This document shows positions 41,699-62,754 of a DNA stretch of 64,000 nt, piece after piece (position 1 is the stretch's first letter; each line of letters starts with the position of its first letter). The position numbers and the translations under genes were made by a program. The stretch is from Escherichia phage PE37. The DNA lies in sequence record NC_054929.1; one strand, given 5' to 3'. The notes beneath the pieces are model-generated. The model worked only from the letters and a program-made list of their open reading frames with translations. It was not told the origin of the DNA and searched no databases.

Positions 41699-42280
41699 AT
41701 GGCGAGTTTAATTTTTACTTATGCAGCAATGAATGCTGGAAAATCTGCTTCTCTTTTGACTGCTGCACATAATTATAAAGAACGTGGAATGAGTGTATTA
41801 GTTCTTAAGCCTGCTATTGATACTCGCGATTCTGTCTGTGAAGTTGTTTCTCGCATTGGAATTAAACAGGAAGCGAATATTATTACAGATGATATGGATA
41901 TTTTCGAGTTCTATAAATGGGCTGAAGCACAAAAAGATATTCATTGTGTATTTGTAGATGAAGCTCAGTTTTTAAAAACTGAACAAGTGCATCAATTGAG
42001 CCGAATTGTTGATACATATAATGTTCCTGTTATGGCTTATGGATTAAGGACTGATTTCGCTGGAAAATTGTTTGAAGGTTCTAAAGAACTTTTAGCGATT
42101 GCAGATAAACTTATTGAACTAAAGGCAGTTTGTCATTGCGGCAAAAAAGCGATTATGACAGCTCGATTAATGGAAGATGGAACACCAGTTAAAGAAGGTA
42201 ATCAAATCTGTATTGGTGATGAAATTTATGTTTCTTTGTGCAGAAAACATTGGAATGAATTAACTAAAAAGCTCGGTTAG
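41699..42280 (+). CDS. tk: thymidine kinase
   Basis: 193 aa, P-loop NAGKSASLL, zinc ribbon CHCGKKA...C. Confidence 0.95.
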   Translation: MASLIFTYAAMNAGKSASLLTAAHNYKERGMSVLVLKPAIDTRDSVCEVVSRIGIKQEANIITDDMDIFEFYKWAEAQKDIHCVFVDEAQFLKTEQVHQLSRIVDTYNVPVMAYGLRTDFAGKLFEGSKELLAIADKLIELKAVCHCGKKAIMTARLMEDGTPVKEGNQICIGDEIYVSLCRKHWNELTKKLG

Positions 42281-44073: not shown

Positions 44074-44106
44074 GTTTACAAGTTGGCAAGGTTATGGTAT
44101 AGTAAT
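44074..44106 (+). promoter_or_regulatory. early promoter
   Basis: GTTTAC ... ggTATAGTAAT. Confidence 0.5.
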
Positions 44107-44235: not shown

Positions 44236-44421
44236 ATGACAAGTGAGCAGGCTTTTAAATTAAGAGAATTAATTGAGACGTATAGTAGAGCTGTTCATAC
44301 ATCAACAATTATTGATGAATCAGCTTTCTCCGGACATGCTAACAAGATTAAATACAAAACTCTTATGGAAGAAGCTAAAGTAAATCTTGATTGTTATATT
44401 GAAACTTTAATTGGTAAATAA
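44236..44421 (+). CDS. hypothetical small helical protein
   Basis: MTSEQAFKLRELIETYS..., 61 aa. Confidence 0.45.
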   Translation: MTSEQAFKLRELIETYSRAVHTSTIIDESAFSGHANKIKYKTLMEEAKVNLDCYIETLIGK

Positions 44422-44422
44422 T

Positions 44423-44965
44423 ATGAAAGCTGTAATTGAAACAACTGATTTGTTCGGTAATCTAGTTATCGAAAAACGCGGTAATGTATATGTTCTGACG
44501 CAGGAAGACGATAGTATTATTATTCTTCCTATGGAACTGGCTGCGATTTTATCTTATGCTCCCTCAAGAGTTACCGGTGTAACTAATATTACAGACGACC
44601 TCCAAGTTCGTTTTTATCGTGGCCTTTACGGCGGTAATATTGAAACTGAATTTATGTGTCTTTCTATCAACAATTGGGCAACATTCGTTGCCAAGGTGAA
44701 AGAATTCTTGGAATCTGAAACAGTCGAAACACCCGAAAAGGCTAAACTTCAATGGGCTAAAGATCGCGGTGCTAGCATTATTAATCCAGTAGCTGCAAAT
44801 TATACTACGACTTTGGATGTCAAGACTTCTTATGAAGATGGCGATGTCGTACTTGTTCGCCAAATTGATGATTCTCGAGCACATATTGTCACATTTACCA
44901 AAGATGAAGCTATTGCACTAAAGACTTATCTTGATTCTGTCATTCCAACTATGATTTCAAAGTGA
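44423..44965 (+). CDS. hypothetical protein (paralog pair member 1)
   Basis: Start at MKAVIETTDL; C-terminus EAIALKTYLDSVIPTMISK. Confidence 0.55.
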   Translation: MKAVIETTDLFGNLVIEKRGNVYVLTQEDDSIIILPMELAAILSYAPSRVTGVTNITDDLQVRFYRGLYGGNIETEFMCLSINNWATFVAKVKEFLESETVETPEKAKLQWAKDRGASIINPVAANYTTTLDVKTSYEDGDVVLVRQIDDSRAHIVTFTKDEAIALKTYLDSVIPTMISK

Positions 44966-44971
44966 GGAAAT

Positions 44972-45493
44972 ATGTTTATTTCAAGTGGAAGTGGTTTAAT
45001 TCGTGTTGAATTTAAAAATGACATCTTTCTTATTCAAGGAGATGATATTATTAAAATGAGTTATGACGAAATCAAGAAAATTTGTCATGCTCTTGAAAGT
45101 CATGGAAAAGTGAACGCTGTTATTGATATTGGCGATTTATGGGTGACACTTTATGAAGTATCCGAAGGATTTAACATTGAAGATGAAAATAACATTTTAG
45201 CTATTGATAAAAGAACTGATTTGTTTGATGTATTAAAAGTTTATGAACAGTCAAATGGCGGAAGAAAAGCTGTATTGATTTATCAAAAACCGCATTCATG
45301 TGGAACTGCTTCAATCATTTCAAATATTGAAGGCGAAGTTGATACTTATATGTGTGTTTTAAAAGCTGGTGGTGACCGTCATCCGGATTTTATTTCTATT
45401 CGTCAAAACAATGGAGAAATTTCATTGTCAAAATCAGAAGCTGAAGCTATGATTAAGTATTTAACAACCGTTACGCCTTCAATGAAAGGATAG
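44972..45493 (+). CDS. hypothetical protein (paralog pair member 2)
   Basis: 173 aa; C-terminus EAEAMIKYLTTVTPSMKG resembles upstream neighbour. Confidence 0.55.
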   Translation: MFISSGSGLIRVEFKNDIFLIQGDDIIKMSYDEIKKICHALESHGKVNAVIDIGDLWVTLYEVSEGFNIEDENNILAIDKRTDLFDVLKVYEQSNGGRKAVLIYQKPHSCGTASIISNIEGEVDTYMCVLKAGGDRHPDFISIRQNNGEISLSKSEAEAMIKYLTTVTPSMKG

Positions 45494-45495
45494 TT

Positions 45496-45957
45496 ATGAT
45501 TATTAATGAAAACTCTTGGCACTATAAATTATTCAAATTGTTTAACGATGAATGGCAACGACCTAAGACACTATGTGCATACTTTTGGTCTATTGTTATC
45601 CCTACATTTTTCGTTTCTTTTTTCGGATGCACTATACTCGCAGGTCTAACTATCATCTGTGCAGAAATCATACAGAAATGGCTTATTTTTGGTAGTTTAT
45701 GGACTCTTATTCCATCAGCATTTATACTTGCTATTTTGCTTGTTTTACTTATTATCGGTTCATTTGTTATTCCTGTACATTTGCATGAAAAATATAAAGA
45801 TTATAAATGGAAAAAGGATTATGCTTTACACGTAGAAAATATTGATAGAGCGTATAAAGGTTTACCTCCTATTCAACCCAAGAAATCTATTATCGTCGAA
45901 TTTTTAAAAGCGCGTAAAGCTAAAGTATGTCCTGTTATTGAATATAAGGCTGAATGA
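45496..45957 (+). CDS. membrane protein
   Basis: 153 aa, 2-3 hydrophobic helices. Confidence 0.55.
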   Translation: MIINENSWHYKLFKLFNDEWQRPKTLCAYFWSIVIPTFFVSFFGCTILAGLTIICAEIIQKWLIFGSLWTLIPSAFILAILLVLLIIGSFVIPVHLHEKYKDYKWKKDYALHVENIDRAYKGLPPIQPKKSIIVEFLKARKAKVCPVIEYKAE

Positions 45958-46967
45958 TGAAAACAGTAATGAAAAGTTATTTTGGTAGTCATCTTTATGG
46001 AACTTCTACCCCAGAATCTGATGTAGATTTTAAAGAAATCTTTGTTCCTCCTGCTCGCGATATTCTTATTGGAAATGTCAAAGAGCATATGAGTAAAAAC
46101 ACTAACAACACATCATCTAAAAACACTAAAGATGATATTGACCATGAACTATACAGTCTTAAGTATTTCTTTAAATTAGCAGCAGATGGTGAAACTGTAG
46201 CGTTAGATATGCTTCACACTCCGCCTGAACTAGTGGTTAAATCTGATTTGCCTGATGTATGGAAGTTTATTCAAGACAATCGTTCTCGTTTTTATACGAC
46301 TAACATGAAATCCTACTTAGGATATGTTCGCAAGCAAGCTTCTAAATACGGTGTTAAGGGTTCTCGTTTGGCTGCATTACGTGATGTATTGAAAGTAGTT
46401 AATCAAATCCCCGATCAGTGGGTTGATTACCGAGAAGATGGAACACAAGGACAACGTCGCACTAAAGTTGAAGATATTAAGCATCGTCTTCCAGAAAACG
46501 AATTCTGTGAATGGGTGTTCCATAATCATGAGAAAACAGGTCCACAAACGTTCTACACTGTATTGGGTCGTAAATATCAGACAACGCTTTCTCTTATTGA
46601 GCTTAAGCAGTCTTTGAATAAACTTGATGCTGAATATGGTGAACGCGCTCGTAAGGCTGAAGCCAATGAAGGTATTGACTGGAAAGCTCTGAGCCATGCT
46701 TGTCGTGGTGGACTCCAACTATTGGAAATTTACAAAACTGGCGACTTAGTTTATCCACTCCAAGATGCTCCATTTATTCTCGACGTGAAGCTGGGTAAAC
46801 ATCCATTTAAAACTGTTCAAGAGTTTTTGGAAGATGTGGTCGATCAAGTAGAAGCAGCATCTACTGAAGCTTCTAAGAATGGTATGCCTAAAACAGTAGA
46901 TATGAGCTTTTGGAATAATTTCCTCGAACAGGTTTATCTTGAAAACCACCGAAGTTATTATAAATGA
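45954..46967 (+). CDS. Pol-beta-type nucleotidyltransferase-like protein
   Basis: N-terminal motif FGSHLYGTSTPESDVDF fits the GS-x(9-13)-DxD NTase signature; 337 aa. Confidence 0.6.
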   Translation: MMKTVMKSYFGSHLYGTSTPESDVDFKEIFVPPARDILIGNVKEHMSKNTNNTSSKNTKDDIDHELYSLKYFFKLAADGETVALDMLHTPPELVVKSDLPDVWKFIQDNRSRFYTTNMKSYLGYVRKQASKYGVKGSRLAALRDVLKVVNQIPDQWVDYREDGTQGQRRTKVEDIKHRLPENEFCEWVFHNHEKTGPQTFYTVLGRKYQTTLSLIELKQSLNKLDAEYGERARKAEANEGIDWKALSHACRGGLQLLEIYKTGDLVYPLQDAPFILDVKLGKHPFKTVQEFLEDVVDQVEAASTEASKNGMPKTVDMSFWNNFLEQVYLENHRSYYK

Positions 46968-46969
46968 TA

Positions 46970-46993
46970 GGGAGCCTTCGGGCTCCCTTTTTA
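46970..46993 (+). terminator. rho-independent terminator (UUCG hairpin)
   Basis: GGGAGCCTTCGGGCTCCC + TTTTTAT. Confidence 0.75.
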
Positions 46994-47016
46994 TTTCAAA
47001 AATTTTTCACAAAGTT

Positions 47017-47046
47017 GTTTACAAGCATAAAGCTTTATGGTACTAT
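47017..47046 (+). promoter_or_regulatory. early promoter in repeated block
   Basis: tttttcacaaagttGTTTACa-...-ggTACTATacaactatcaact; palindrome CATAAAG/CTTTATG in spacer. Confidence 0.6.
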
Positions 47047-47080
47047 ACAACTATCAACTGATACGGATTTGGAGAATAAA

Positions 47081-48049
47081 ATGAAAACTGTAACTATCAA
47101 TAAGGGTATCTACTTCGGTAAAGAAATCTCTGGAACTTTTGAGCTCTTAGGCGAATGGTTCCCAGATAATGCTCCGGTAGATGCACAAGGAGATGGTAAA
47201 GTTTTTGTTGAAATTGACGGTAAGCGTCGCGGTGTTTGGGTTTACAAATCAGACATTTCATATGATGGTGTAAAAGTTGAAGAAGTTAAAGAATCGTATG
47301 AAGATATGAAAACCCGCATTAATAAAAGATTTAATGTTATGGGAATGATGACGAATGGTATTATTAATGGAAATATTCGTTCATTAATTATCTCTGGCGC
47401 AGCAGGTATTGGTAAAACGTATTCTTTAGATAAAGCTTTAAATAAAGCAAATGATATTGGATACATTGAATATAAAAGCATTAATGGTAAAATCTCTGGT
47501 ATTGGTCTTTATGAGCAGCTTTGGAATAATCGTGAAGAGAATTCTGTCCTTTTGATTGATGATGTGGATGTTTTCTCTGATATGGACATTCTTAATCTTC
47601 TGAAAGCTGCTCTGGACACTGGAGAGACCCGTAAAGTCTGCTGGAGCACCGCATCTTCTTACTTAGAAGAAAAAGGCATTGAGCGTGAGTTTGAATTTAA
47701 AGGAACGATTGTTTTTATCACAAACGTTGACATTGACCGCGAATTAGACCGTGGTACTAAACTTGCTCCACATTTACAAGCATTAGTGTCCCGCTCAGTT
47801 TATTTGGATTTGGGTGTTCACACTAATGAAGAAATTATGGTCAGGGTTGAAGATGTTATTCTTTCAACTGACATGATGCAAAAGCGCGGTCTTTCTGATG
47901 AAGAAACTTATAAAGCATTATCATGGATGAAAGTCAATGTTAATCGTTTACGCAATGTTTCACTGCGTACTGCTCTTTATCTTGCTGACTTTATTATGAC
48001 CGACAAAAACGGTTGGGAAGAAATTGCTACGGTTACTCTTCTGAAATAA
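47081..48049 (+). CDS. AAA+ ATPase
   Basis: Walker A GAAGIGKT, Walker B VLLIDDVD; start at MKTVTINKG after GGAGAATAAA RBS. Confidence 0.7.
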   Translation: MKTVTINKGIYFGKEISGTFELLGEWFPDNAPVDAQGDGKVFVEIDGKRRGVWVYKSDISYDGVKVEEVKESYEDMKTRINKRFNVMGMMTNGIINGNIRSLIISGAAGIGKTYSLDKALNKANDIGYIEYKSINGKISGIGLYEQLWNNREENSVLLIDDVDVFSDMDILNLLKAALDTGETRKVCWSTASSYLEEKGIEREFEFKGTIVFITNVDIDRELDRGTKLAPHLQALVSRSVYLDLGVHTNEEIMVRVEDVILSTDMMQKRGLSDEETYKALSWMKVNVNRLRNVSLRTALYLADFIMTDKNGWEEIATVTLLK

Positions 48050-48151
48050 ATTCATAAGAGGACTTCTAAGACAAAAAGGCAGTTCAGAAATAGATTATAT
48101 GGACTGCCATCAAAAAGATGACTAGAATTAAACTGGTAAATGGAGGTAAAG

Positions 48152-48454
48152 ATGTTATACTCAAAAGCTCGTGAAATTTATGAAACTAAAATTAAAGACG
48201 CGGTTCATCAGTTCGCAACGACAATGCGTTGGACAAATGACTGGGAATACTCCAAGAATCATAAGAAGCCCTTGGTGACAAGAAAGGCTCATATGTTAGT
48301 GTTAATAGACCGTGAGCAGATTAAAGCCCGAGAAGCCCTCCAGAATCATAAAAAGGCTGCCTTTGAATGGTTTATGGATAACACTGCTCCTGAGACTAAG
48401 AAAGCAGTGAGCGCTTGGTTCAGTGGAAAAAATTGTGAAAGAAGTTTCTTTTAG
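48152..48454 (+). CDS. hypothetical protein
   Basis: Start at ATG after GGAGGT RBS; 100 aa. Confidence 0.5.
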   Translation: MLYSKAREIYETKIKDAVHQFATTMRWTNDWEYSKNHKKPLVTRKAHMLVLIDREQIKAREALQNHKKAAFEWFMDNTAPETKKAVSAWFSGKNCERSFF

Positions 48455-48456
48455 TT

Positions 48457-48486
48457 GTTTACAAGACTGTTCCTCTGTGGTACTAT
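48457..48486 (+). promoter_or_regulatory. early promoter in repeated block
   Basis: GTTTAC ... ggTACTATacaactatcaactac. Confidence 0.6.
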
Positions 48487-48514
48487 ACAACTATCAACTA
48501 CGGAGGAACAGAAA

Positions 48515-49042
48515 ATGAACGCTAAAGATATTTTCAACTTGGTAAACTACAATGATGGTAAATTTAAATCTGAAGCACAAAGTAAGTTCTTTAATGACAT
48601 CTCAATCGGAGGTGAAATCACTGTTGATGGAGGACAAATTTACAAATCCCGTTGGAATTGGATCGTTATTATTGATGAGATTGGTATTGTAGAAATTTAC
48701 AAAAATACGAATAAAAATCGTACATTACACTGGTCTCGTGATACTAACGAACAGTACAAAAAGGATAAAGCATCTAAGTTATCTCGTGTAACTCAAGAAG
48801 ATATTGAGTTCATCAAGAAAGATATTTTGATGTATGATAACTTAATTGCTGAAGAGCAAGCTGTTATTGATAAATTTGATGAGATTAAAGCTTCTCATAA
48901 AATTCCTGATTTTATGAAAGAATCAGTAAATGAACGATACACTCTCATTTCAGAGCGTATTGAAACTTACAAAAAGCAAAGAGCTGAACGCCAGAATACT
49001 CTTCGGAAGTTTGAAGAACGGTTAAAGACGGTACTTGCATAA
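48515..49042 (+). CDS. hypothetical protein
   Basis: Start at MNAKDIF after GGAGGAACAGAAA RBS; 175 aa. Confidence 0.55.
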   Translation: MNAKDIFNLVNYNDGKFKSEAQSKFFNDISIGGEITVDGGQIYKSRWNWIVIIDEIGIVEIYKNTNKNRTLHWSRDTNEQYKKDKASKLSRVTQEDIEFIKKDILMYDNLIAEEQAVIDKFDEIKASHKIPDFMKESVNERYTLISERIETYKKQRAERQNTLRKFEERLKTVLA

Positions 49043-51485: not shown

Positions 51486-52487
51486 ATGACTCGTAACGAA
51501 TATATCAAATCATTCAATAGCGTTATTGATGATAAAGCTATACCGATGTTTGGCCAAAATAGCGTTCTTTCTATTATCAATCAATGGCTCAATAGTGTTG
51601 ATGCAGGTATTGTTTCTTCTGCTAAATTTATTCATGAAATTCGTAAAATTTCTAGCCGTGTAGATAAAGATAATATCAAGAAAACCTTTAAAGAGTCTCG
51701 TCTTCTTTCATATTTGGTTAATCGGGATATTCTTGGTAATTTTGGGAAAGAAATTAAACGAACCAAAGATGTAGTAGGATATAATTGGTTCGGTGATGTT
51801 AATTCTTATCATCTTAATAATAAAGAAGACCCTGAGAATATTTTTACTCGTCGTTGGATTAGTAATTTCAGACTTTTTAAAGGACAAATTCTAAAATCAG
51901 CTTCTAAATTATGTTATGGCGATTATCGTCAAATTCATCCTTTGGCTTCTGATATGATTATCGTAAAAGAATATGAGCTTGATGAAAATAAAGTAGCTAT
52001 TTTTGTGAATTATGGATTTTTTACACCAAACGCTAATCAAAAGAATATTAATAAATTTTTCTCAATTGCTAGTGATATAACTCGACAATTAGAGACTGCA
52101 CTACTTTGTATGGAAACAGTAGAAAATATTCATACATATCCTTTTAAGAATATATGCGGATGGGAAGGATATAAAATTGTAATTAGTCTTCGTGAAGTGA
52201 AATGTGCTTATTCACCTACTGATAAAGAAATTTACCAACAAAAATGTGATGAAATTGTGAATACTCCTAAAGAAGAAACTACCCTTGAGGAACTAATGGA
52301 TAATCTTGATGATTCACCTGAACCGGTAGAAATTCGTCCAGAAGTTATTGCATTAGAAAAAGCTTATAAAGAAGTTCTAGAAATTTCTAATAAAGCGCAG
52401 AAAGAATATGAGCAGGCTAAAAAGATTTGGGAAGAATCCGTTAATCGTCTTGATCGTCTTGAACAAGCTTTAAAGTTAATTAAGTAA
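51486..52487 (+). CDS. coiled-coil-tailed protein, array member C
   Basis: Start at MTRNEYIKSF after GAGGAGATTAAT RBS; C-terminal coiled coil. Confidence 0.6.
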   Translation: MTRNEYIKSFNSVIDDKAIPMFGQNSVLSIINQWLNSVDAGIVSSAKFIHEIRKISSRVDKDNIKKTFKESRLLSYLVNRDILGNFGKEIKRTKDVVGYNWFGDVNSYHLNNKEDPENIFTRRWISNFRLFKGQILKSASKLCYGDYRQIHPLASDMIIVKEYELDENKVAIFVNYGFFTPNANQKNINKFFSIASDITRQLETALLCMETVENIHTYPFKNICGWEGYKIVISLREVKCAYSPTDKEIYQQKCDEIVNTPKEETTLEELMDNLDDSPEPVEIRPEVIALEKAYKEVLEISNKAQKEYEQAKKIWEESVNRLDRLEQALKLIK

Positions 52488-52539
52488 TTTAAAGCCAAGG
52501 ATGGCTCGGAGTATAAATCATTAACCAAGTGAGAAGAAC

Positions 52540-53466
52540 ATGAAAACTCGTAAACATTATATTGATTATTTTGACAGTCTTATTACTAAACACCGTAATT
52601 ATCAAATCGGACACAGAGCAGTAATCAATAATATTCTTCGTGATTTTTTAGACTATATTGGTTGGGAAAACCATATTTGTAAAGATACACAAAATGCGTA
52701 TTCACATTCTCTTGGTTCTTTGCTCGAGTGGTTCAAGCGTTCCCGATTACTATCTTCTGTGATAGCTGTTAATAATGTTAAAAAATTTATGTATCCAATC
52801 TACATTAAGACTAATGTATCAAATGCTAGTGTTGTTACATTTAATATTATTAACGACGTGAAAAGAACTTATTTAGAAGAATGGTTTTCTAAAGATAGTA
52901 AAGAAAAATTTGCTAGTGAATTTTCACACGAATTCAATAATAACGTAAATATGCTTTTTAAGCATTCTCGTAGACTGTTTTGTCATGGTGATAACCGTAC
53001 TATTAATGTGAATGTAAAAGACTGGGTTACGGCTAAATTTATTCCATCGTCCCAGAATGGACAATTTGAATTGTCAATTATCGTTTGCGCTCCGCATGAG
53101 ATATATAAAAATCTTCCGTATATGAAACCACGCGAAGCTAATAAACACAATGAAACTATTAGTTCTTTGGCTTATAATTTGCGCGTGTTATTATCTGATA
53201 TGGATGTAGTCAAATCCTTTGATGATAATACGAATTATGGTCTTTCACTGTTTGAAACTAAATTTGTTATTAAATTAAAGGACCCTAGTGAATTTAAACC
53301 TATACCAAAATCCAATCATGGAAATGATACTATGAAAGAAGAACGTGAATATCTCAATGTCCGTTTGACTGAAGTTGAAAAACAAATTGAAGAGCATACT
53401 AAAGTTCTTAAGGCTTTAACCGCCAAAGCAAATGGTTTACGTAATGCTATTGAGGTATTGAAATGA
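52540..53466 (+). CDS. coiled-coil-tailed protein, array member D
   Basis: 308 aa, MKTRKHYIDYF..., C-terminal coiled coil. Confidence 0.6.
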   Translation: MKTRKHYIDYFDSLITKHRNYQIGHRAVINNILRDFLDYIGWENHICKDTQNAYSHSLGSLLEWFKRSRLLSSVIAVNNVKKFMYPIYIKTNVSNASVVTFNIINDVKRTYLEEWFSKDSKEKFASEFSHEFNNNVNMLFKHSRRLFCHGDNRTINVNVKDWVTAKFIPSSQNGQFELSIIVCAPHEIYKNLPYMKPREANKHNETISSLAYNLRVLLSDMDVVKSFDDNTNYGLSLFETKFVIKLKDPSEFKPIPKSNHGNDTMKEEREYLNVRLTEVEKQIEEHTKVLKALTAKANGLRNAIEVLK

Positions 53467-53852
53467 AAAAGCGTTTATTAGAAGACATTGCAGCTTCAAG
53501 TAATTCCAGTTTAATTAAAATTATTATGGCTGGTGAGGAAGATGATATGGAAATGCGTGGAAAGATTCACGGCTGCGACGATTTAGATTTTAAACCTCCA
53601 GCATGGGATGCTATTATGGCTATGGTTGAACGACGTGAAAGAGCTTCTAAAAACGTTCCTAATTGCCCTGAATGCGATACTGAACAAGTTCAATTGATTA
53701 ACTGGCGTAAACCAGAGCTTGAATATAAATGCCGTCAATGTAAACATAAATTCAGTAAGCATGCTCCGGAAATGGTTAAATTGCCTGACTCTACTGAGTT
53801 CTTTAAAGAACTTGTGAGTGTTCAACCAATGCCTAATAATATTTTGGATTAA
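53463..53852 (+). CDS. zinc-ribbon protein
   Basis: CPEC-x18-CRQC, 129 aa. Confidence 0.5.
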
Positions 53853-53854
53853 AA

Positions 53855-54097
53855 ATGACCAAGCGTAAAGAATATATGGAGGCTGCTGAAAAGGCAGTCC
53901 GTGAATTAGCAATAGCTTATTATAATGAACATGGTAAATTTCCTGATAGATACAGCGTGCTTAAATCTGCTTTAACTCGTTCATATAAAAATATGCTATC
54001 AGAAGTAAGTGATATTATATACAAACATAAAGAACAAACGGGCCAAAGTCTTGATTACGACGAGACTTTTAAACAAGTACTAGGAATTAAGGAATAA
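53855..54097 (+). CDS. hypothetical protein
   Basis: 80 aa ORF. Confidence 0.5.
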
Positions 54098-54098
54098 T

Positions 54099-54362
54099 AT
54101 GTTTAAAGTATATGGTTATGATAGCAACATTCACAAATGTGTGTATTGCGATAATGCAAAACGTCTTTTGACCGTGAAGAAACAGCCGTTTGAATTTATC
54201 AACATTATGCCGGAAAAAGGTGTTTTTGATGATGAGAAAATCGCTGAGCTTCTGACTAAACTAGGTCGTGATACTCAAATCGGCTTGACAATGCCCCAGG
54301 TATTTGCTCCTGATGGAAGTCATATTGGTGGATTTGACCAACTGCGAGAATATTTTAAATGA
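54099..54362 (+). CDS. nrdC: glutaredoxin/thioredoxin NrdC
   Basis: 87 aa, CVYC active site, MFKVYGYDSNIHKCVYCDNAKRLL matches T4 from memory. Confidence 0.95.
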   Translation: MFKVYGYDSNIHKCVYCDNAKRLLTVKKQPFEFINIMPEKGVFDDEKIAELLTKLGRDTQIGLTMPQVFAPDGSHIGGFDQLREYFK

Positions 54363-54574
54363 TGCTCGAAGGAACTGACTATATTCACGATTACCGCGGA
54401 AGCGCGGTATATGTAGGTGATGAAGTTGCAGTTTATTATGGGTATGGAACTTTGATGACAGCAAAGGTTATTCAAATTAAAAATAATCGTGCTAAACTCG
54501 AAGTTTATTATTCTAATGATGAAAAGTCTATTTCTAAGTGGAAATACGGCGATTGTATGGTTAAATTGGGGTAA
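54359..54574 (+). CDS. hypothetical protein
   Basis: 71 aa ORF, ATGA overlap with nrdC. Confidence 0.45.
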   Translation: MMLEGTDYIHDYRGSAVYVGDEVAVYYGYGTLMTAKVIQIKNNRAKLEVYYSNDEKSISKWKYGDCMVKLG

Positions 54575-54757
54575 ATATGATTTACGATATTAATGTATCA
54601 CGAGCTCCGTCAATGGTTACTATTCCAGCCGAAGAACTAGAACGTCTTCAGAAAATTGAAGAACTTCTTTGGGAAATTGAATGTGCCCTGCCATCAGGAC
54701 TAGAATCCTGGATTGATGATGAAGAACTTAATAAATTGCGAAATTAATTGGTGAAAA

Positions 54758-55078
54758 ATGACTATTGAAAATAAATTAGATGTTGATGCAGTTCTGAGCG
54801 AAATCATTGAAGACCATGATGCATTTTCGGAAAACTATGATTTCGATTTTTCCGATTATCTTAAACCTGTCGAAATAGAAGACTGGGTGCAAGATGGTAA
54901 ATGTCAATATCGTCAGTGTGTTTACTTTAGTCCAAAACATAATGTACATGTGGCTGTAAATGAATCTCGGTTAGGTTCTTATCATTCTGACTGGTATTAT
55001 GCAGTTCCGACTGTTGAACTAGTCGAGCCCCATGAACGTGTAGTAACTCAGACAATACGAGAATGGATTACGCTATAA
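54758..55078 (+). CDS. hypothetical protein
   Basis: 106 aa ORF. Confidence 0.5.
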   Translation: MTIENKLDVDAVLSEIIEDHDAFSENYDFDFSDYLKPVEIEDWVQDGKCQYRQCVYFSPKHNVHVAVNESRLGSYHSDWYYAVPTVELVEPHERVVTQTIREWITL

Positions 55079-55201
55079 AACCTTGGTGGGCGGCTAGATG
55101 GGAAACTGTAGAGCCAGAGCCGGAAGAACCGGTTTACACTGATGAAGAAACAATATATAATGAACCAACGATAAATGACTTAATTGATATGGAGATGGGA
55201 C

Positions 55202-55687
55202 ATGATTACAGTAGATAAGTGGTTTAGAATTAATCGTGCTGATACAGGGCTGTGTAATTACTGGCCGGAACTTAGTGCAGGTACTGTCTTTAAAGTTCGT
55301 GAACTTGCAAAAGAATGTGAAGATGATATAGAGCCTGATACTGGAATTATTGAAATTGAACTTTCTGATGGAAAGATTATTAACATCTACGATAAGCCAA
55401 TTACGTATTGGTGCTTGTGGAATACTGAATCAGTAGAAAATGGCGAAATTGAAGAAGTTGTAGAGAGAACTAATCAAGTTGTTCAGAAGCCTAAAGCTGA
55501 TTTTCAAGGTGAACGTATTTCATACGCATTAGCTAAATTAGCTGCACAAGAAAATAACGATGGCTATGAAGGAAATTTGATGCAAGCTGCGGCAGAATAT
55601 ATTGAATGGCTTGAAACCCAAATTTCTTTTTCTGACCAAAAGATTCGGCAATATAAGCGATTGAATCAAATGTTTTACAATACTTGA
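55202..55687 (+). CDS. pin: Pin (Lon protease inhibitor)-like protein
   Basis: ATG start with GGAG RBS gives 161 aa (track start is TTG); position next to gene 49 as in T4. Confidence 0.6.
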   Translation: MITVDKWFRINRADTGLCNYWPELSAGTVFKVRELAKECEDDIEPDTGIIEIELSDGKIINIYDKPITYWCLWNTESVENGEIEEVVERTNQVVQKPKADFQGERISYALAKLAAQENNDGYEGNLMQAAAEYIEWLETQISFSDQKIRQYKRLNQMFYNT

Positions 55688-55728
55688 AAATAATAAATAC
55701 CCTTATCTATTTAAGGTAAGGGTTTATT

Positions 55729-56202
55729 ATGTTATTGACTGGCAAATTATATAAAGAAGAAAAACAGAAATTTTATGATGCACAAAATGGTAAATGTTTA
55801 ATTTGCCAACGAGAACTAAATCCTGACGTTCAAGCTAATCATCTTGATCATGACCATGAATTAAATGGACCAAAAGCAGGAAAAGTACGTGGATTGCTCT
55901 GTAATCTCTGCAATGCCGCGGAAGGTCAAATGAAGCATAAATTTAATCGTTCTGGCTTAAAGGGACAAGGCGTTGATTATCTTGAATGGTTAGAAAATTT
56001 ACTTACTTATTTAAAATCCGATTACACCCAAAATAATATTCATCCTAACTTTGTTGGAGATAAATCAAAGGAATTTTCTCGTTTAGGAAAAGAGGAAATG
56101 ATGGCTGAGATGCTTCAAAGAGGATTTGAATATAATGAATCTGACACTAAAACACAATTAATAGCTTCATTTAAGAAGCAGCTTAGAAAGAGTTTAAAAT
56201 GA
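55729..56202 (+). CDS. 49: endonuclease VII (Holliday junction resolvase) gp49
   Basis: 157 aa, zinc motif CLICQ...CNLCN, matches T4 gp49 from memory. Confidence 0.95.
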   Translation: MLLTGKLYKEEKQKFYDAQNGKCLICQRELNPDVQANHLDHDHELNGPKAGKVRGLLCNLCNAAEGQMKHKFNRSGLKGQGVDYLEWLENLLTYLKSDYTQNNIHPNFVGDKSKEFSRLGKEEMMAEMLQRGFEYNESDTKTQLIASFKKQLRKSLK

Positions 56203-58016
56203 CAATTGAAAAAGAAATTGAAGGATTGATTCATAAAACTAATAAAGACCTTTTAAACGAGAATGCTAATAAAGATTCTCGTGTTTTTCCAACTCAACGG
56301 GACCTTATGGCTGGTATTGTGTCTAAACACATTGCCAAAAATATGGTCCCGTCTTTTATTATGAAAGCGCATGAAAGCGGAATTATTCATTTCCATGATA
56401 TTGATTATTCCCCTGCTCTTCCATTTACTAATTGCTGTTTAGTAGATTTAAAAGGAATGCTTGAGAACGGATTTAAGCTTGGTAATGCACAGATTGAAAC
56501 TCCTAAATCAATTGGTGTTGCTACTGCAATTATGGCACAAATTACTGCACAGGTTGCTTCCCATCAATACGGCGGAACGACTTTTGCTAATGTAGATAAA
56601 GTACTTTCTCCTTATGTTAAACGCACCTATGCAAAACATATTGAGGATGCAGAAAAATGGCAAATCGCTGATGCGTTGAATTATGCTCAATCTAAAACAG
56701 AAAAAGATGTATACGATGCATTCCAAGCTTATGAATATGAAGTAAATACTCTCTTTAGTTCAAACGGACAAACGCCTTTTGTAACAATTACATTTGGTAC
56801 GGGAACTGACTGGACTGAACGAATGATTCAGAAAGCAATTCTGAAAAATCGTATTAAAGGTCTCGGTCGTGATGGGATAACTCCTATTTTTCCTAAGCTT
56901 GTTATGTTCGTCGAAGAAGGCGTTAATCTTTACAAAGACGATCCGAATTACGACATTAAGCAACTTGCTCTAGAGTGCGCAAGCAAAAGGATGTATCCTG
57001 ATATTATTTCAGCTAAGAACAATAAAGCTATCACCGGCTCATCTATTCCTGTTTCTCCAATGGGTTGCCGCAGTTTCTTGAGTGTGTGGAAAGATTCAAC
57101 CGGTAATGAAATTCTTGATGGACGTAATAATCTCGGTGTTGTAACGCTGAATCTTCCTCGTATCGCATTAGATTCTTATATTGGAACACAGTTCAATGAA
57201 CAGAAATTTATCGAATTGTTCAATGAACGAATGGATTTATGTTTTGAAGCTTTGATGTGCAGAATTAGTTCCTTAAAAGGAGTTAAAGCGACTGTTGCTC
57301 CTATTCTTTACCAAGAAGGTGCATTCGGGGTTCGTCTTAAACCTGATGACGATATAATTGAGTTATTTAAAAACGGCAGAAGTTCAGTGTCTCTAGGATA
57401 CATTGGTATTCACGAATTGAATATTCTTGTCGGTCGTGATATTGGACGAGAAATTTTAACTAAAATGAATGCTCATCTTAAACAGTGGACTGAAAGAACC
57501 GGTTTTGCTTTTAGTTTGTATTCTACACCTGCTGAAAACCTGTGCTATCGCTTCTGTAAACTTGATACTGAAAAATATGGAAGTGTAAAGGATGTTACTG
57601 ATAAAGGCTGGTACACTAACAGTTTCCACGTTTCAGTAGAAGAAAATATCACTCCGTTTGAAAAGATTTCTCGCGAAGCACCATATCATTTCATTGCGAC
57701 AGGTGGCCACATTTCTTATGTTGAACTTCCTGATATGAAAAATAACTTAAAAGGTCTTGAGGCTGTATGGGATTATGCCGCACAACATTTAGATTATTTT
57801 GGTGTTAATATGCCGGTAGATAAATGTTTTACATGCGGAAGTACCCATGAAATGACTCCTACTGAAAACGGATTTGTTTGTTCTATTTGTGGAGAAACTG
57901 ATCCTAAAAAGATGAACACAATAAGAAGAACATGTGGTTATTTGGGAAATCCGAACGAACGCGGATTTAATCTCGGTAAAAATAAAGAAATCATGCATAG
58001 GGTTAAACACCAATGA
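56199..58016 (+). CDS. nrdD: anaerobic ribonucleotide reductase NrdD (uninterrupted)
   Basis: 605 aa continuous ORF; C-terminal glycyl radical motif RRTCGYLG and Zn-ribbon cysteines. Confidence 0.95.
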   Translation: MTIEKEIEGLIHKTNKDLLNENANKDSRVFPTQRDLMAGIVSKHIAKNMVPSFIMKAHESGIIHFHDIDYSPALPFTNCCLVDLKGMLENGFKLGNAQIETPKSIGVATAIMAQITAQVASHQYGGTTFANVDKVLSPYVKRTYAKHIEDAEKWQIADALNYAQSKTEKDVYDAFQAYEYEVNTLFSSNGQTPFVTITFGTGTDWTERMIQKAILKNRIKGLGRDGITPIFPKLVMFVEEGVNLYKDDPNYDIKQLALECASKRMYPDIISAKNNKAITGSSIPVSPMGCRSFLSVWKDSTGNEILDGRNNLGVVTLNLPRIALDSYIGTQFNEQKFIELFNERMDLCFEALMCRISSLKGVKATVAPILYQEGAFGVRLKPDDDIIELFKNGRSSVSLGYIGIHELNILVGRDIGREILTKMNAHLKQWTERTGFAFSLYSTPAENLCYRFCKLDTEKYGSVKDVTDKGWYTNSFHVSVEENITPFEKISREAPYHFIATGGHISYVELPDMKNNLKGLEAVWDYAAQHLDYFGVNMPVDKCFTCGSTHEMTPTENGFVCSICGETDPKKMNTIRRTCGYLGNPNERGFNLGKNKEIMHRVKHQ

Positions 58017-58483
58017 ATTATGATAGATTTTATCCTTGCGATTTTGTGAATGGTCCTGGATGCAGGACTGTTCTTTTCGTTACAGGTTGTTTGCATAAAT
58101 GTGAAGGGTGTTATAATAAATCAACATGGAATGCTAGAAATGGTATTCCATTCACTGGTGAAACACTAGAGCAATTAATTGAATGTTTGAATAATGATTA
58201 TATAGAAGGATTGACTATAACTGGAGGTGACCCTCTCTATCCTGATAATCGAGATGTTATTCATTGCATTGTTCAAACAGTAAAAAATCTTTATCCTAAT
58301 AAAAGCATTTGGTTGTGGACAGGATATAAGTTTGAAGATATTAAACAACTAGAAATGCTTAAATATGTTGATGTTATTATTGATGGGAAGTATGAGAAAA
58401 ATCTTCCGACCAAAAAGCTGTGGCGAGGTTCAGATAATCAGCGACTTTGGTCAAATACCGATGGGGTGTGGAAACATGATTAA
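58013..58483 (+). CDS. nrdG: anaerobic RNR activating enzyme NrdG (radical SAM)
   Basis: 156 aa, CxxxCxxC (CLHKCEGC). Confidence 0.95.
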   Translation: MNYDRFYPCDFVNGPGCRTVLFVTGCLHKCEGCYNKSTWNARNGIPFTGETLEQLIECLNNDYIEGLTITGGDPLYPDNRDVIHCIVQTVKNLYPNKSIWLWTGYKFEDIKQLEMLKYVDVIIDGKYEKNLPTKKLWRGSDNQRLWSNTDGVWKHD

Positions 58484-58597
58484 ATTGAATTACATTATGG
58501 ATACTATAAATGATATGATTTTTCATTTTGGTCCAGAATTTTATTCGCAATATAGTTTAGTGCTTATCAATGCTTGGTTAATCAATTAAGGGTAAAT

Positions 58598-58813
58598 ATG
58601 TATAAATTTCGTAAAGGTTTAGCTGATTTTCTTACAACTGTAACATTCTTTCTGTTTATGGCAGTTGGAGCTATTTTCCTTATTCCTTTTATTGCTATAT
58701 TTTTCGTGATTAGTTTGATTTCTCCAGAAAAAGGCTTATCTTCTAGTGAGTTCAATAAGCGTCTGGATAAAATTACTAACAAGCTGAATGCTGTTCTTGA
58801 TAAAAAGGCTTAA
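58598..58813 (+). CDS. small membrane protein
   Basis: Start at MYKFRKGL, one long hydrophobic segment. Confidence 0.5.
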   Translation: MYKFRKGLADFLTTVTFFLFMAVGAIFLIPFIAIFFVISLISPEKGLSSSEFNKRLDKITNKLNAVLDKKA

Positions 58814-58815
58814 TT

Positions 58816-59127
58816 ATGATTAGTTTTGAGCGGTATGTAGTAGAGAGTTGGAATGGTTTTGATATGTTCGGTAATGACTATTATTTCTATGAATGTAGTC
58901 TGAACCCAAGCTTCTGGGCTGGACGTGAACAAGACCTCGAAGAAATCAACGCTCGTGCCGATTTGTTAGGTGAACTGCCTACTACTTATTTCACCTTTGA
59001 TGAATCCGGCTTCGTTATCCAGGTTTATTTTCCTGAAGAAAACTCTGGTGAGGATTCTGTTAATCCTCCTTATTGGGCTTATCAAGGAATTATTTCTCGT
59101 GGAACAAAACTCGAACTTAAAGAATAA
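58816..59127 (+). CDS. hypothetical protein
   Basis: 103 aa ORF. Confidence 0.5.
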   Translation: MISFERYVVESWNGFDMFGNDYYFYECSLNPSFWAGREQDLEEINARADLLGELPTTYFTFDESGFVIQVYFPEENSGEDSVNPPYWAYQGIISRGTKLELKE

Positions 59128-59422
59128 GATTGAAGTCTATGGAATTCCAGATGAAGTAGGTCGTTGTCCTGGATGTCAATCAGTTACAAAACTTCTAAAG
59201 GAGCTCAATGCTCCTTTTACTTTCTATAAAGTTCTTACAAATAACGGTAAGATTGAGTATGATCGTCCGCTGATTGTATCTCTTGCTAAACGCGCTGGAT
59301 TCACATCTCTTAACATTCGTTATCCGGTCATTTTCATTAATGATTCTAGACAAAAGAACATTAAACACTTCAAAGAAACTCTCATTTCACTTGGATATGA
59401 TAGAGATATCATAGAAGATTAA
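59099..59422 (+). CDS. nrdH: glutaredoxin-like protein (NrdH-like)
   Basis: CPGC active site; no in-frame ATG in the non-overlapping part; GTG at 59099 preceded by AAGGAA is the likely start. Confidence 0.6.
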   Translation: MEQNSNLKNKIEVYGIPDEVGRCPGCQSVTKLLKELNAPFTFYKVLTNNGKIEYDRPLIVSLAKRAGFTSLNIRYPVIFINDSRQKNIKHFKETLISLGYDRDIIED

Positions 59423-59424
59423 GA

Positions 59425-59448
59425 CGGGCCCTCTGGGCCTTTCTTTCT
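59425..59448 (+). terminator. rho-independent terminator
   Basis: GGCCC-TCT-GGGCC followed by TTTCTTTCT. Confidence 0.5.
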
Positions 59449-59520
59449 CGCATTCTGTATATTACCATTCTAAGCTATCGTTCCTTTCTTATCATTCCCT
59501 AAAATATTTTTCACAAAGTT

Positions 59521-59550
59521 GTTTACAACGAGCTCAAACTGTGGTATTAT
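59521..59550 (+). promoter_or_regulatory. early promoter in repeated block
   Basis: tttttcacaaagttGTTTACa-18-TATTAT. Confidence 0.55.
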
Positions 59551-59580
59551 TAACACATGAATTGCCTTTGAGGAATTGAT

Positions 59581-59763
59581 ATGGTTATGATTGATAAAGA
59601 AATTAAAAAGGGACAGTATTATCTCATTAATGGTAATGCTGTTCGTGTTACTCATGTAAATAGTTTTGAAGTTTGCTATATTATACTCAAGTTACATAAA
59701 CGCATGATTTGTGATCGTGCTGCATTTAGTTCAGTTGCTAAGGAAATTAAACTCCATGGGTAA
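59581..59763 (+). CDS. hypothetical protein
   Basis: 60 aa ORF. Confidence 0.4.
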   Translation: MVMIDKEIKKGQYYLINGNAVRVTHVNSFEVCYIILKLHKRMICDRAAFSSVAKEIKLHG

Positions 59764-60049
59764 AACGTATCGTCGTAAAGACTTGAAAGTTCGTGATTAT
59801 GACTATTTCGGAAAGCGTAAAGCTCCTGATGGGGTAAGTCATAAAGATATGGTTGAAAACATTTTTCGCTCAGATAAATGGCGTAGAATGAAAGGCATTG
59901 ATTCAGAAGTTAAAGATGAGCTAAATCGCCAATTACGTGGTGAAGTAAGAAAGTTGAAAAAATCAGTTTACATTGACGATGATTTTGATTATAATACTTC
60001 TCAACGAGTTGCTAAGCGCAAATCAAACGAGTGTTATCGTTACAGCTGA
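59756..60049 (+). CDS. hypothetical basic protein
   Basis: Start at MGKTYRRKDL; Lys/Arg-rich. Confidence 0.5.
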   Translation: MGKTYRRKDLKVRDYDYFGKRKAPDGVSHKDMVENIFRSDKWRRMKGIDSEVKDELNRQLRGEVRKLKKSVYIDDDFDYNTSQRVAKRKSNECYRYS

Positions 60050-60188
60050 GGAAAATATGAATATTAAACGAATGCTTTTTAAGCAAGGGCTATATACTTT
60101 AAATGTTACTCCAAAAGGCGATACAACTAAGTGGTCAGTAAATGACTGGATTAAATTTATTGATGAAAACGGTAACTGGAAAATTTAA

Positions 60189-60389
60189 ATGAATCCTGAA
60201 TCTAAATTATCGCAACGAATTGCCGAAGCTCGTCGTCAGTTCTTTGAAAATATGATAGCCCAAGGTATTGATGACGAAGTTTTTCTGAACTGGTTTTGGA
60301 ATCACAAATACTCAAAATGCGCAGGAGCAATATTAATATCAGCTGCAATGATGTACGAAGGCTGGAAGGGTGCCAAACAGTTTAGCTAA
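60189..60389 (+). CDS. hypothetical protein
   Basis: 66 aa ORF followed by terminator. Confidence 0.45.
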   Translation: MNPESKLSQRIAEARRQFFENMIAQGIDDEVFLNWFWNHKYSKCAGAILISAAMMYEGWKGAKQFS

Positions 60390-60408
60390 GGGCTTCGGCC
60401 CTTTTTGG
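60390..60408 (+). terminator. rho-independent terminator (UUCG hairpin)
   Basis: GGGCTTCGGCCC + TTTTTGG. Confidence 0.7.
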
Positions 60409-60441
60409 ATAATAAAATTTTAATGTAATTGAGGATAATGT

Positions 60442-60768
60442 ATGACTATTCAAATTAAAAACGCCATCAATTCTTACGCATATGATAAAGTAGTTTCTTT
60501 GCTAGAAAAAGGCGATATTGTAACTCCTCAAATTTTGGATAAATGGGAAAAAGAGCTTCATCAGACGATGAAACAGAATGATCAGAAAATTGGACGCAAT
60601 ACTGTCCGTGAATTGTTGGTTCAATATATCTTGTCAGAATTTGATGTTAAAGCTTTTGGTGTAGAATCTAAAGCTTATCAGAAGCATGAAATTTCTGATA
60701 AAACTATTCGTCGTATGAAAAATCAACGCAAGAAAAAATTTGCTGACCTGAAAATTACTAAGGCATAA
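60442..60768 (+). CDS. hypothetical protein
   Basis: 108 aa ORF. Confidence 0.5.
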   Translation: MTIQIKNAINSYAYDKVVSLLEKGDIVTPQILDKWEKELHQTMKQNDQKIGRNTVRELLVQYILSEFDVKAFGVESKAYQKHEISDKTIRRMKNQRKKKFADLKITKA

Positions 60769-60770
60769 TT

Positions 60771-60986
60771 ATGAATGAAGCTCTTATTAACGATTTGCGT
60801 CTTGCCGGATATGAAGTAAATACAAACGGCATTGGTTTAACTCAAATTGAAGGAAATGGATTCATCCTTGAGTATGAATTTAGCCAATGGTGGTTATACG
60901 CTAATTACGGCGAATTGATTGAATATGTTGACCAATTTGATTCACTAGATGCAGCTCTTGAAGCGGCTAAGTTGATGAATGTATGA
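60771..60986 (+). CDS. hypothetical protein
   Basis: 71 aa ORF. Confidence 0.45.
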   Translation: MNEALINDLRLAGYEVNTNGIGLTQIEGNGFILEYEFSQWWLYANYGELIEYVDQFDSLDAALEAAKLMNV

Positions 60987-61252
60987 AATTTATTAATATT
61001 TCTATTACTATTGAAAATTATGGCATTTTCTATGTTGACCAATACATGAAAATTTCATTTTTCCCAAATAAGACTGGTGTTGGATATTGGGAAAGTCATG
61101 TTTCTGAATTAAATGAAAGTGAATATGTTAGCACACATGAAAAGTTTTTAGACTTTTTATATCATGCTGATTTAACTAGTCATTACATAGATATTCATGA
61201 ATTTAAAAAGATGATGGAGAAAGTGTTCCAAGCATACTGCTTACTTAGATAA
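60983..61252 (+). CDS. hypothetical protein
   Basis: 89 aa ORF, ATGA overlap. Confidence 0.45.
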   Translation: MKFINISITIENYGIFYVDQYMKISFFPNKTGVGYWESHVSELNESEYVSTHEKFLDFLYHADLTSHYIDIHEFKKMMEKVFQAYCLLR

Positions 61253-61330
61253 CTGATATCCTCTATGCTTTAAGATAGATCTTCAAATATTATGATATAA
61301 TAGATCTATGAATTGAGCTAAGAGGTGAAA

Positions 61331-61888: not shown

Positions 61889-62090
61889 CCTCTCCGGATT
61901 CTTGGAAGAAATACCTGAAGTTGAAGCTATTCCCTATTTACTTAAAATGTATCTCAGGGAAGTTTTAGCTCTTGACATTGATATTGATCCAGAAAATCCG
62001 TATGATACCGCTTTTAAATCTAATGGTGTAGAATTAAACTATCGGTATCATTTAACAGATGATGATTTTTATTTTATATTAGAGAAATAA
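61872..62090 (+). CDS. hypothetical protein
   Basis: 72 aa ORF overlapping end of 55. Confidence 0.45.
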
Positions 62091-62091
62091 T

Positions 62092-62581: not shown

Positions 62582-62754
62582 AAGATGAACACCCAGACTT
62601 CTGAAATAGATTATAATAAAGTTCGTTCCTTTAAAGAGGAAATGATGAGACTCTTTAAAGAGTCTCATGATAAAGCTAAAGCAGAAGGAACTATAACATA
62701 TAAGCGCATAAAATTTAAAAGTTCTAACGAGCCTCTGTATGGCGTATTATGTGG

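Follow-up and report, generated by a model that had tools for sequence, protein, structure and literature searches.

NrdC.11 of T4-like phages as an RlaP-family nucleotidyltransferase: a candidate RNA end fill-in enzyme next to the AAA+ ATPase NrdC.10

Background

Two neighbouring genes on the + strand of Escherichia phage PE37 (NC_054929.1), at positions 45954-48049 of the 64,000-nucleotide stretch analysed here (the window), encode a predicted nucleotidyltransferase and a predicted AAA+ ATPase. They raise two questions: what would the nucleotidyltransferase act on, and does it work with the ATPase? A first-pass annotation, made without database searches, had proposed that the enzyme modifies or mimics a nucleotide second messenger in anti-defence, repairs tRNA 3' ends or nucleotidylates a host target, and had implied a pairing of the two genes. 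The reading that we favour, at a probability of roughly 0.6, is that these are two independent early genes, one (nrdC.11) for an RlaP enzyme that would fill in RNA ends and the other (nrdC.10) for a separate AAA+ ATPase.

Both the gene identities and the proposed role of RlaP in repair are already in the literature, and the identities are also in RefSeq annotation. Nolan et al. (2006) reported that nrdC.11 orthologues match a nucleotidyltransferase COG and that nrdC.10 matches AAA, and among the phage nucleotidyltransferases predicted to put nucleotides back ahead of RNA ligation, Iyer et al. (2021) described RlaP as the most common. The idea of nucleotide restoration by a phage RlaP is credited to Burroughs and Aravind, as relayed in PMC7824862, and is taken up by Carruthers, Fatma and Huang (bioRxiv, December 2025; PMC12776372), who characterised two Pseudomonas enzymes, PfRlaP and PaRlaP. 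These enzymes add one or two nucleoside monophosphates, from any nucleoside triphosphate (NTP), to RNA 3'-OH ends, including that of full-length tRNA; the choice of base is not specific, and no more than two nucleotides are added. On a nicked tRNA mimic they favour the 3' end at the break over the acceptor-side fragment, and Mn2+ is preferred. DNA and E. coli proteins are not substrates, and aminoacylation of a tRNA lacking one nucleotide is partly rescued. In the RlaP network of the same preprint, T4 NrdC.11 is named as an RlaP and falls in cluster 5, the tested enzymes being in cluster 1a.

The present analysis thus confirms and localises an idea that is already in these sources. What it adds is corrected gene starts and transcription units, a link of the NrdC.11 clade to RtcB and Pnkp/Hen1, a clade-specific insertion, evidence against treating NrdC.10 as a partner of NrdC.11, and a warning about the mislabelling of these genes as thioredoxins.

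Results and discussion

Identity of the two genes

The region 45400-48600 is matched by 738 phage records, of which Escherichia phage EO1 is the best (99.9% identity), and by about 440 Tequatrovirus genomes at 95-99% identity. Going by these matches, the window is that of a T4-like phage (Tequatrovirus). In annotated relatives the open reading frame (ORF) of 337 amino acids (aa) is nrdC.11 (T4 NP_049709; nrdC.11 of phage RB51) and the gene that follows is nrdC.10 (T4 NP_049708; RB51 nrdC.10). With tblastn, RB51 NrdC.11 aligns to 45957-46964 at 96.4% identity and RB51 NrdC.10 to 47081-48046 at 99.1%. The comparison with T4 nrdC.10 and nrdC.11 that the first-pass annotation proposed therefore identifies the two genes as their orthologues. 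Its placement of both in the tk-nrdC interval also holds: tk lies at 41699-42277, by tblastn with the RB51 protein, and nrdC at about 54100-54360, by collinearity with RB51, which is 97.7% identical to the window over 52000-64000. The nucleotidyltransferase gene and the parts of it discussed below are as follows.

45954..46967, + strand: NrdC.11, RlaP-family (PF10127) Pol-beta-type nucleotidyltransferase, 337 aa (336 aa from the second ATG at 45957)
45984..46028, + strand: nucleotidyltransferase signature, G11-S12 (45984-45989) and D23-V-D25 (46020-46028)
46134..46145, + strand: D61-I-D63-H, at a predicted strand (E62-68); D63 is invariant
46401..46589, + strand: insertion rich in beta structure (about 60 aa, residues 150-212) that separates the nucleotidyltransferase domain from the helical domain
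46677..46706, + strand: C-terminal helical-domain motif DWKALSHACR (D242, W243, K244, H248, R251)

In many GenBank and RefSeq phage records NrdC.11, NrdC.10 and neighbouring ORFs are labelled "thioredoxin". We rejected this label, as neither NrdC.11 nor NrdC.10 shows a thioredoxin domain; its probable source is the nrdC with which the gene names begin. In one record NrdC.11 appears as an "HNH homing endonuclease".

NrdC.11 belongs to the RlaP family

The first-pass annotation called the 337-aa ORF a nucleotidyltransferase of the Pol-beta superfamily on the basis of an N-terminal GS-x(9-13)-DxD pattern. The pattern is present: NrdC.11 carries FGSHLYGTSTPESDVDF, with G11-S12, ten residues, and D23-V-D25. 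The Pfam RlaP model (PF10127) matches NrdC.11 with 43.8 bits against a cut-off of 23 (E=3.3e-11), and in PHROGs the protein falls in phrog_388, "nucleotidyltransferase" (E=3.5e-138). The family is large, with 3,517 clusters at the 50% identity level found at E<=1e-3 and 830 at E<=1e-30, mostly in full-length alignments. Among 146 cluster representatives the signature (G11-S12, D23 and D25) is conserved in at least 99%, and all of a diverse set of 67 homologues (34-53% identity) match PF10127 individually. Judged by the profile matches, the signature is far more than a chance motif.

Across the 67 homologues, G11, S12, G16, S22, D23, D25, N57, D63, Y132, R231, K244, H248, R251 and P268 are invariant, and D61 and D85 are nearly so (at least 90% conserved); the 146 cluster representatives agree with this pattern. 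The third catalytic acidic residue, which the first-pass annotation had left to be found, is probably D63, the choice of this residue over D61 or D85 being our assignment. "Three strictly conserved aspartic acids" are given as a trait of RlaP (PMC12776372), and NrdC.11 has the GS motif and three conserved aspartates. The DWKALSHACR motif probably helps to form a cleft that binds NTP and RNA, by analogy with the description of the PfRlaP structure (PMC12776372).

An AlphaFold2 model built from 42 sequences (predicted local distance difference test, pLDDT, 89) has a beta-alpha-beta core, in which strand 2 begins with D23 and D25 and D63 sits on a strand further along, followed by a beta-rich segment (about 150-212) and a helical bundle (214-336). 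The predicted arrangement of an N-terminal nucleotidyltransferase and a C-terminal helical domain is that of RlaP. Among solved structures, the closest in fold are HalB, 3c18, kanamycin nucleotidyltransferase, LinB and HEPN-like helical domains, so that the structural neighbours are enzymes with a nucleotidyltransferase and a helical domain; these Foldseek matches to the PDB are weak, all with E-values above 1e-3. Searching PDB chains by sequence, both protein by protein and with profiles, gave nothing useful for NrdC.11 or NrdC.10, and PADLOC and NCBIfam scans gave no meaningful matches. The superfamily call of the first-pass annotation is thus borne out by the PF10127 match, the invariant catalytic residues and the predicted fold. 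It had named loss of the DxD residues among homologues, or a different fold, as grounds for giving the call up; none of the 67 homologues departs from the DxD residues, and the model has a fold of the nucleotidyltransferase type.

NrdC.11 departs from the RlaP family model in one respect. The beta-rich segment has conserved positions of its own (L179, P180, E183, Y201, G205 and K207), and the Pfam RlaP model has no such segment. When residues 151-212 were deleted in silico, the RlaP match reached position 174 of 249 in the model instead of 142, with 46.5 bits. Because its removal lengthens the RlaP match, we regard segment 150-212 as a clade-specific insertion.

Some relatives of NrdC.11 lie near RNA-repair genes

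In a prokaryote scan taking one genome per species, 156 relatives with the motif DWKAxSHAxR were found, and the best 80, essentially full-length bacterial or archaeal relatives with 32-54% identity, were examined; neighbouring ORFs were clustered and then checked against Pfam. The counts of co-occurrence here and below refer to the best 80 loci of each scan and do not amount to a census. Within 5 kb of the relative we found RtcB in nine of the 80 loci, the bacterial kinase-phosphatase-ligase Pnkp (PF16542) in about eight, and Hen1, the partner of bacterial Pnkp, in seven. In loci L065, L076 and L091, the end of the Pnkp gene lies 10 bases ahead of the start of the RlaP match or overlaps it by 4 bases. 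In all, roughly a fifth of the 80 full-length bacterial relatives have RNA-repair neighbours. Because RtcB, Pnkp and Hen1 lie near its prokaryotic relatives, the NrdC.11 clade itself, beyond the Pseudomonas clade, is linked to RNA repair.

An HD_4 phosphohydrolase gene is directly adjacent to RlaP in four of the 80 prokaryotic loci (L042, L053, L064 and L081). The signal is weaker in viral contigs: among 84 viral loci, Pnkp was found in four, RNA ligase 1 (Rnl1) in two and RtcB in one, and adjacent HD genes in four (L008, 8909-9424; L009; L167, 9492-9899; L168, 10965-11408). The phage and bacterial loci with an adjacent HD gene include several that are unrelated to one another. Such an HD enzyme could strip 2',3'-cyclic or 3'-phosphates and so leave the 3'-OH needed by RlaP. 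Three phage contexts outside the T4 group have replication and nucleotide-metabolism genes near the NrdC.11 relative, with no consistent partner.

One candidate linkage was rejected. In phage ESCO10 (L251, OM386655.1) a "polynucleotide kinase" is annotated directly upstream of NrdC.11. The record, however, seems to have its product names displaced, and the 453-nt gene is apparently the ORF of about 150 aa that precedes nrdC.11 in related phages. The same record lists a 237-nt "deoxycytidylate deaminase", again a name out of step with gene size and order.

A possible fill-in step in tRNA repair

On the reading that we favour, the role of NrdC.11 would follow the RlaP-type fill-in reaction combined with the healing and sealing enzymes of T4, a scheme modelled on the biochemistry of the family and on the neighbourhoods of its relatives. 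Transcription of the gene, the last of a packed block, would begin at an early promoter about 1.9 kb upstream. In the protein, G11-S12 together with D23, D25 and D63 would probably hold two divalent metals and the NTP, and the enzyme would probably extend RNA 3'-OH ends by one or two nucleotides without a template. The situation that would call for it is a host anticodon nuclease of the RloC type that cuts a tRNA and removes a nucleotide. Pnkp would make a 3'-OH at the break, NrdC.11 would replace the lost nucleotide or nucleotides, and RNA ligase 1 would seal the filled-in break. Rnl1 is a 5'-phosphate ligase that needs a 3'-OH, the end left by RlaP, and this compatibility has been pointed out (PMC12776372). 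The T4 pathway that counters PrrC, with Pnkp (pseT) and RNA ligase 1 (rnlA), belongs to the same phage lineage as NrdC.11, and it supplies and consumes the very ends that RlaP needs and leaves (3'-OH and 5'-phosphate); unlike those two enzymes, NrdC.11 is no known component of it.

If this reading is true, fill-in is a third step that T-even phages add to the classical T4 healing-and-sealing pathway for tRNA. RloC excises the wobble nucleotide, a lesion proposed to defeat repair by T4 Pnk/Rnl1, and a fill-in step would reverse the damage done by such nucleotide-excising anticodon nucleases, which have been proposed to be repair-proof.

Several observations weigh against this reading. In T4-like phages nrdC.11 is not beside pseT or rnlA; RB51 encodes both, about 80 kb from nrdC.11, and no ligase or kinase neighbour was found beside NrdC.11 in the window or in RB51. 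This differs from the RlaP genes that adjoin ligase or kinase genes. Most phage and bacterial relatives of NrdC.11, too, have no repair gene within 5-10 kb. The activity data come from Pseudomonas enzymes of cluster 1a, described in a preprint, whereas NrdC.11 belongs to cluster 5; and since the conserved insertion of about 60 aa is absent from the family model of the tested enzymes, the substrate of NrdC.11 could differ from theirs. The segment from nrdC.11 to mobD.3 can be deleted from T4 with viability kept. Finally, untemplated addition would give the right nucleotide in only a fraction of the molecules, as is discussed in PMC12776372.

Other roles for NrdC.11

Of the roles proposed by the first-pass annotation, tRNA 3'-end repair came closest, in that the evidence points to repair of RNA 3' ends; the part that is not supported is CCA addition, as the family evidence concerns the filling in of broken ends. 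The tRNA genes in the window that bear on this are listed here.

29727-30554, + strand: cluster of ten tRNA genes (Gln, Leu, Gly, Pro, Ser, Thr, Met(CAT), Tyr, Asn, Arg)
29727-29800, + strand: tRNA-Gln, no encoded CCA
29977-30051, + strand: tRNA-Pro, no encoded CCA

The observation of two tRNA genes without an encoded CCA was correct, the other eight having CCA, and NrdC.11 might accordingly be thought to add CCA, or part of it, to the Gln and Pro tRNAs or to tRNAs trimmed by a host nuclease. The tested RlaPs do extend any RNA 3'-OH with any NTP, that of full-length tRNA included, but one or two nucleotides of no fixed base, placed preferentially at a break, are a poor fit to this task (PMC12776372). 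Class II CCA-adding enzymes share the Pol-beta superfamily with NrdC.11 and, like RlaP, extend RNA 3' ends with no nucleic-acid template; unlike RlaP, they are specific for CCA, and NrdC.11 does not match their model. At E<=0.1 in Pfam there was no match to the head domain of CCA-adding enzymes or poly(A) polymerase, only RlaP and trivial NTP_transf_2 hits. The relatives of NrdC.11, moreover, associate with ligases and end-healing enzymes, for which CCA addition has no need. T4 tRNAs without CCA are said, in a result attributed to Deutscher, Foulds and McClain in 1974, to mature through the host cca enzyme, which also speaks against a phage enzyme for this step. We consider CCA completion unlikely. 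As to the tRNA genes themselves, Gln abuts Leu with no spacer, and Pro and Ser are one base apart. T4 itself has eight tRNAs, and the Tyr and Asn tRNAs look like extras relative to T4.

The structural neighbours suggest two further roles. Kanamycin nucleotidyltransferase (ANT(4')), LinB, AadA and the MNT antitoxins share the architecture of a nucleotidyltransferase plus a helical domain, and NrdC.11 might, like kanamycin nucleotidyltransferase, LinB or MntA, nucleotidylate a protein or small molecule, such as a host factor or an antibiotic-like compound. This appears quite improbable. The family-specific Pfam match is to RlaP, the NCBIfam MntA model reaches 13.2 bits against a cut-off of 60, and E. 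coli proteins were not substrates of the tested RlaPs (PMC12776372). No HEPN gene adjoins NrdC.11, and MNT/MntA proteins are small and single-domain, in contrast to the 337 aa of NrdC.11 with its own helical domain. The suggestion of a nucleotidylated host target is therefore left with no family support. Equally, HalB is the closest solved fold, and because HalB is the signal synthase of Hailong, one may suppose that the NrdC.11 clade makes or extends short oligonucleotides that replace or mimic an immune signal; we give this, or the variant in which NrdC.11 works with NrdC.10 in T-even phages, hardly any weight. The second-messenger role of the first-pass annotation, taken here as an anti-defence enzyme that would make, extend or mimic a nucleotide or oligonucleotide messenger much as a CD-NTase or Hailong HalB does, is just as improbable. 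The match to HalB covers a generic minimal nucleotidyltransferase core at 16% identity with a Foldseek E-value above 1e-3, no CD-NTase is among the top structural matches, and at E<=0.1 neither a CD-NTase or SMODS match in Pfam nor a match in PADLOC was found. The tested RlaPs are inactive on DNA and stop after two nucleotides (PMC12776372), and the neighbourhoods of the relatives point to RNA repair. Kanamycin nucleotidyltransferase, the MNT-type enzymes and HalB, which act on aminoglycosides, HEPN toxins and free dATP, respectively, are 10-16% identical to NrdC.11 and have no family-level sequence match to it. RlaP, by contrast, is matched above the Pfam threshold, and some full-length relatives of NrdC.11 lie beside RtcB or Pnkp/Hen1.

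nrdC.11 and nrdC.10 are probably separate transcription units

The first-pass annotation placed each gene behind its own terminator and early promoter. For the ATPase gene this is so; for the nucleotidyltransferase it is not, as its start overlaps the stop codon of the preceding gene. The signals and the flanking genes are as follows.

44074..44103, + strand: promoter-like site of the T4 early type, matching the consensus (GTTTACA, 17 nt, TG-n-TATAGT)
45496..45957, + strand: ORF for a predicted membrane protein of 153 aa, RB32ORF096c type, phrog_944
46969..46996, + strand: intrinsic terminator (8-bp G+C-rich stem, UUCG loop, T-run)
47017..47046, + strand: T4 early-type promoter for nrdC.10 (GTTTACA, 17 nt, TG-n-TACTAT)
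47081..48049, + strand: NrdC.10, AAA+ ATPase, 322 aa, with a Shine-Dalgarno sequence GGAG at 47071-47074

Upstream of NrdC.11, the block 44236-46967 consists of packed or overlapping ORFs with one early-type promoter at about 44074-44103, and this putative promoter is the nearest one upstream of the block that ends with NrdC.11. The ATGATG of NrdC.11 (45954-45959) overlaps the TGA of the membrane-protein ORF, which suggests translational coupling. Two bases past the NrdC.11 stop codon begins the terminator hairpin (46969-46988, followed by the T-run), with a predicted folding energy of -18.4 kcal/mol (z=-4.5 against shuffled sequences). Compensatory changes preserve the stem in phages with an NrdC.11 of only 76-82% identity (GGGAGCC/GGCTCCC to AGGAACC/GGTTCCT), and the -35 element, Shine-Dalgarno sequence and ATG of nrdC.10 are conserved. 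A terminator downstream of nrdC.11 is annotated in phage NR1. The mechanical ORF start of the ATPase at 46964, given in the first-pass annotation, lies upstream of both terminator and promoter and was rejected in favour of the ATG at 47081, which has the GGAG.

Could the two proteins nevertheless form a two-component system, for example with the ATPase delivering or remodelling a substrate for the nucleotidyltransferase? Of 78 viral loci sampled around NrdC.11, 36 have NrdC.10 within 10 kb, on the same strand and 0.1-2.3 kb downstream, in T4-like phages of Escherichia, Klebsiella, Enterobacter and Acinetobacter. All 36, however, are T4-like phages with at least 51% identity in NrdC.11. The remaining 42 lack NrdC.10, even some with an NrdC.11 of 81-82% identity. 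It is missing beside some close NrdC.11 proteins (L096, L099 and L133) and beside all of those at 50% identity or less. Other genes are often inserted between the two, and in only four of 80 loci centred on NrdC.10 is an RlaP found within 10 kb; relatives of NrdC.10 in Rhodobacter and Xanthomonas phages have no RlaP neighbour. In bacteria the partners of RlaP relatives are RtcB or Pnkp/Hen1, and no recurring AAA+ family is adjacent to these relatives. Given the conserved terminator and promoter between the genes, together with these co-occurrence counts, NrdC.11 and NrdC.10 are probably neighbours by ancestry, through inherited synteny, and not a functional module. The implied pairing is thus not upheld, and a two-component system seems to us very unlikely.

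NrdC.10 is an intact AAA+ ATPase

The first-pass annotation recognised NrdC.10 as an AAA+ ATPase from GAAGIGKT and VLLIDDVD. Both motifs are present, and the predicted model of the protein shows an AAA+ core and lid. The motifs are given below; the roles in the last two lines are assigned from AAA+ conventions.

47396..47419, + strand: Walker A, GAAGIGKT, residues 106-113
47546..47569, + strand: Walker B, VLLIDDVD, residues 156-163
47714..47797, + strand: putative sensor 1, FITN (N215), and S-R238-S, probable arginine finger
47960..47974, + strand: SLRTA in the lid; invariant R296, probable sensor 2

In 27 NrdC.10 homologues (54-89% identity) Walker A, Walker B with its DD, N215, S-R238-S and R296 are invariant; in distant homologues S-R238-S reads SRC. 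An arginine-finger motif of the SRC type is a trait of the clamp-loader/RarA clade of AAA+, which takes in RFC, gp44 and RarA. The model (pLDDT 89) comprises a beta domain of about 65 residues (1-65) followed by the AAA+ core and lid. NrdC.10 thus has Walker A and B, sensor 1, an arginine finger, sensor 2, an alpha-beta-alpha core and a helical lid, the features of AAA+ ATPases, from which it differs by its family-specific N-terminal beta domain. The nearest folds are MoxR-type NorQ/CbbQ, MCM and sigma-54 activators, and then DnaA, ORC/Cdc6 and RFC. No Pfam AAA model reaches its cut-off, the best match among sequence profiles is Cdc6 (E=0.08), and PHROGs places the protein in phrog_1250, "unknown function". 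From motifs and predicted fold, NrdC.10 is an intact, probably oligomeric AAA+ ATPase.

Some indication of what NrdC.10 does may come from its distant relatives. Of 77 viral loci with such relatives (L173-L249), 51 have a UvsW-like helicase about 1 kb downstream, 25 have UvsY nearby and 22 have UvsX nearby. This synteny is a weak hint of a role in DNA transactions; against this, it may reflect one conserved lineage and not function. The phrog_1250 family is widespread beyond enterobacterial T4-like phages, and phrog_11279, phrog_11758 and phrog_11058 (unknown function) recur nearby.

Other observations

Directly upstream, within the packed block of NrdC.11, are two tandem paralogous genes (44411-44965 and 44972-45493, + strand), both of which match the Pfam N- and C-terminal domains of the y05I-like putative transcription factor (T4 mobD.1 type). 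Annotations of some other T-even phages give a mobD homing endonuclease beside nrdC.11, where the window has the 153-aa membrane-protein ORF. RB51 has a seg-like homing endonuclease gene between nrdC.10 and nrdC.9 (L003, 2340-3059), which is absent from the window (48050-48140).

An environmental phage contig (L006, 6350-11700) has an IS605-type OrfB/TnpB gene (Cas12f-like) directly after its RlaP gene, on the opposite strand. On either side of the OrfB/TnpB gene, the same three ORFs occur as a duplicated set: a weak DNMK match, a single-stranded DNA-binding protein (SSB) and an ORF of 142 aa.

Downstream of NrdC.10, a further early-type promoter of T4 (TTTACA, 17 nt, TG-n-TACTAT) is found at 48458-48486, inside the mechanical ORF 48455-49042. 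Because this promoter sits within the longest ORF, the NrdC.8 gene probably starts at the ATG at 48515, the same pattern as for NrdC.10. On the scale of the whole window, the GC skew flips from negative to positive at about 24000-26000, which fits a switch from leftward late to rightward early genes in a genome of the T4 type.

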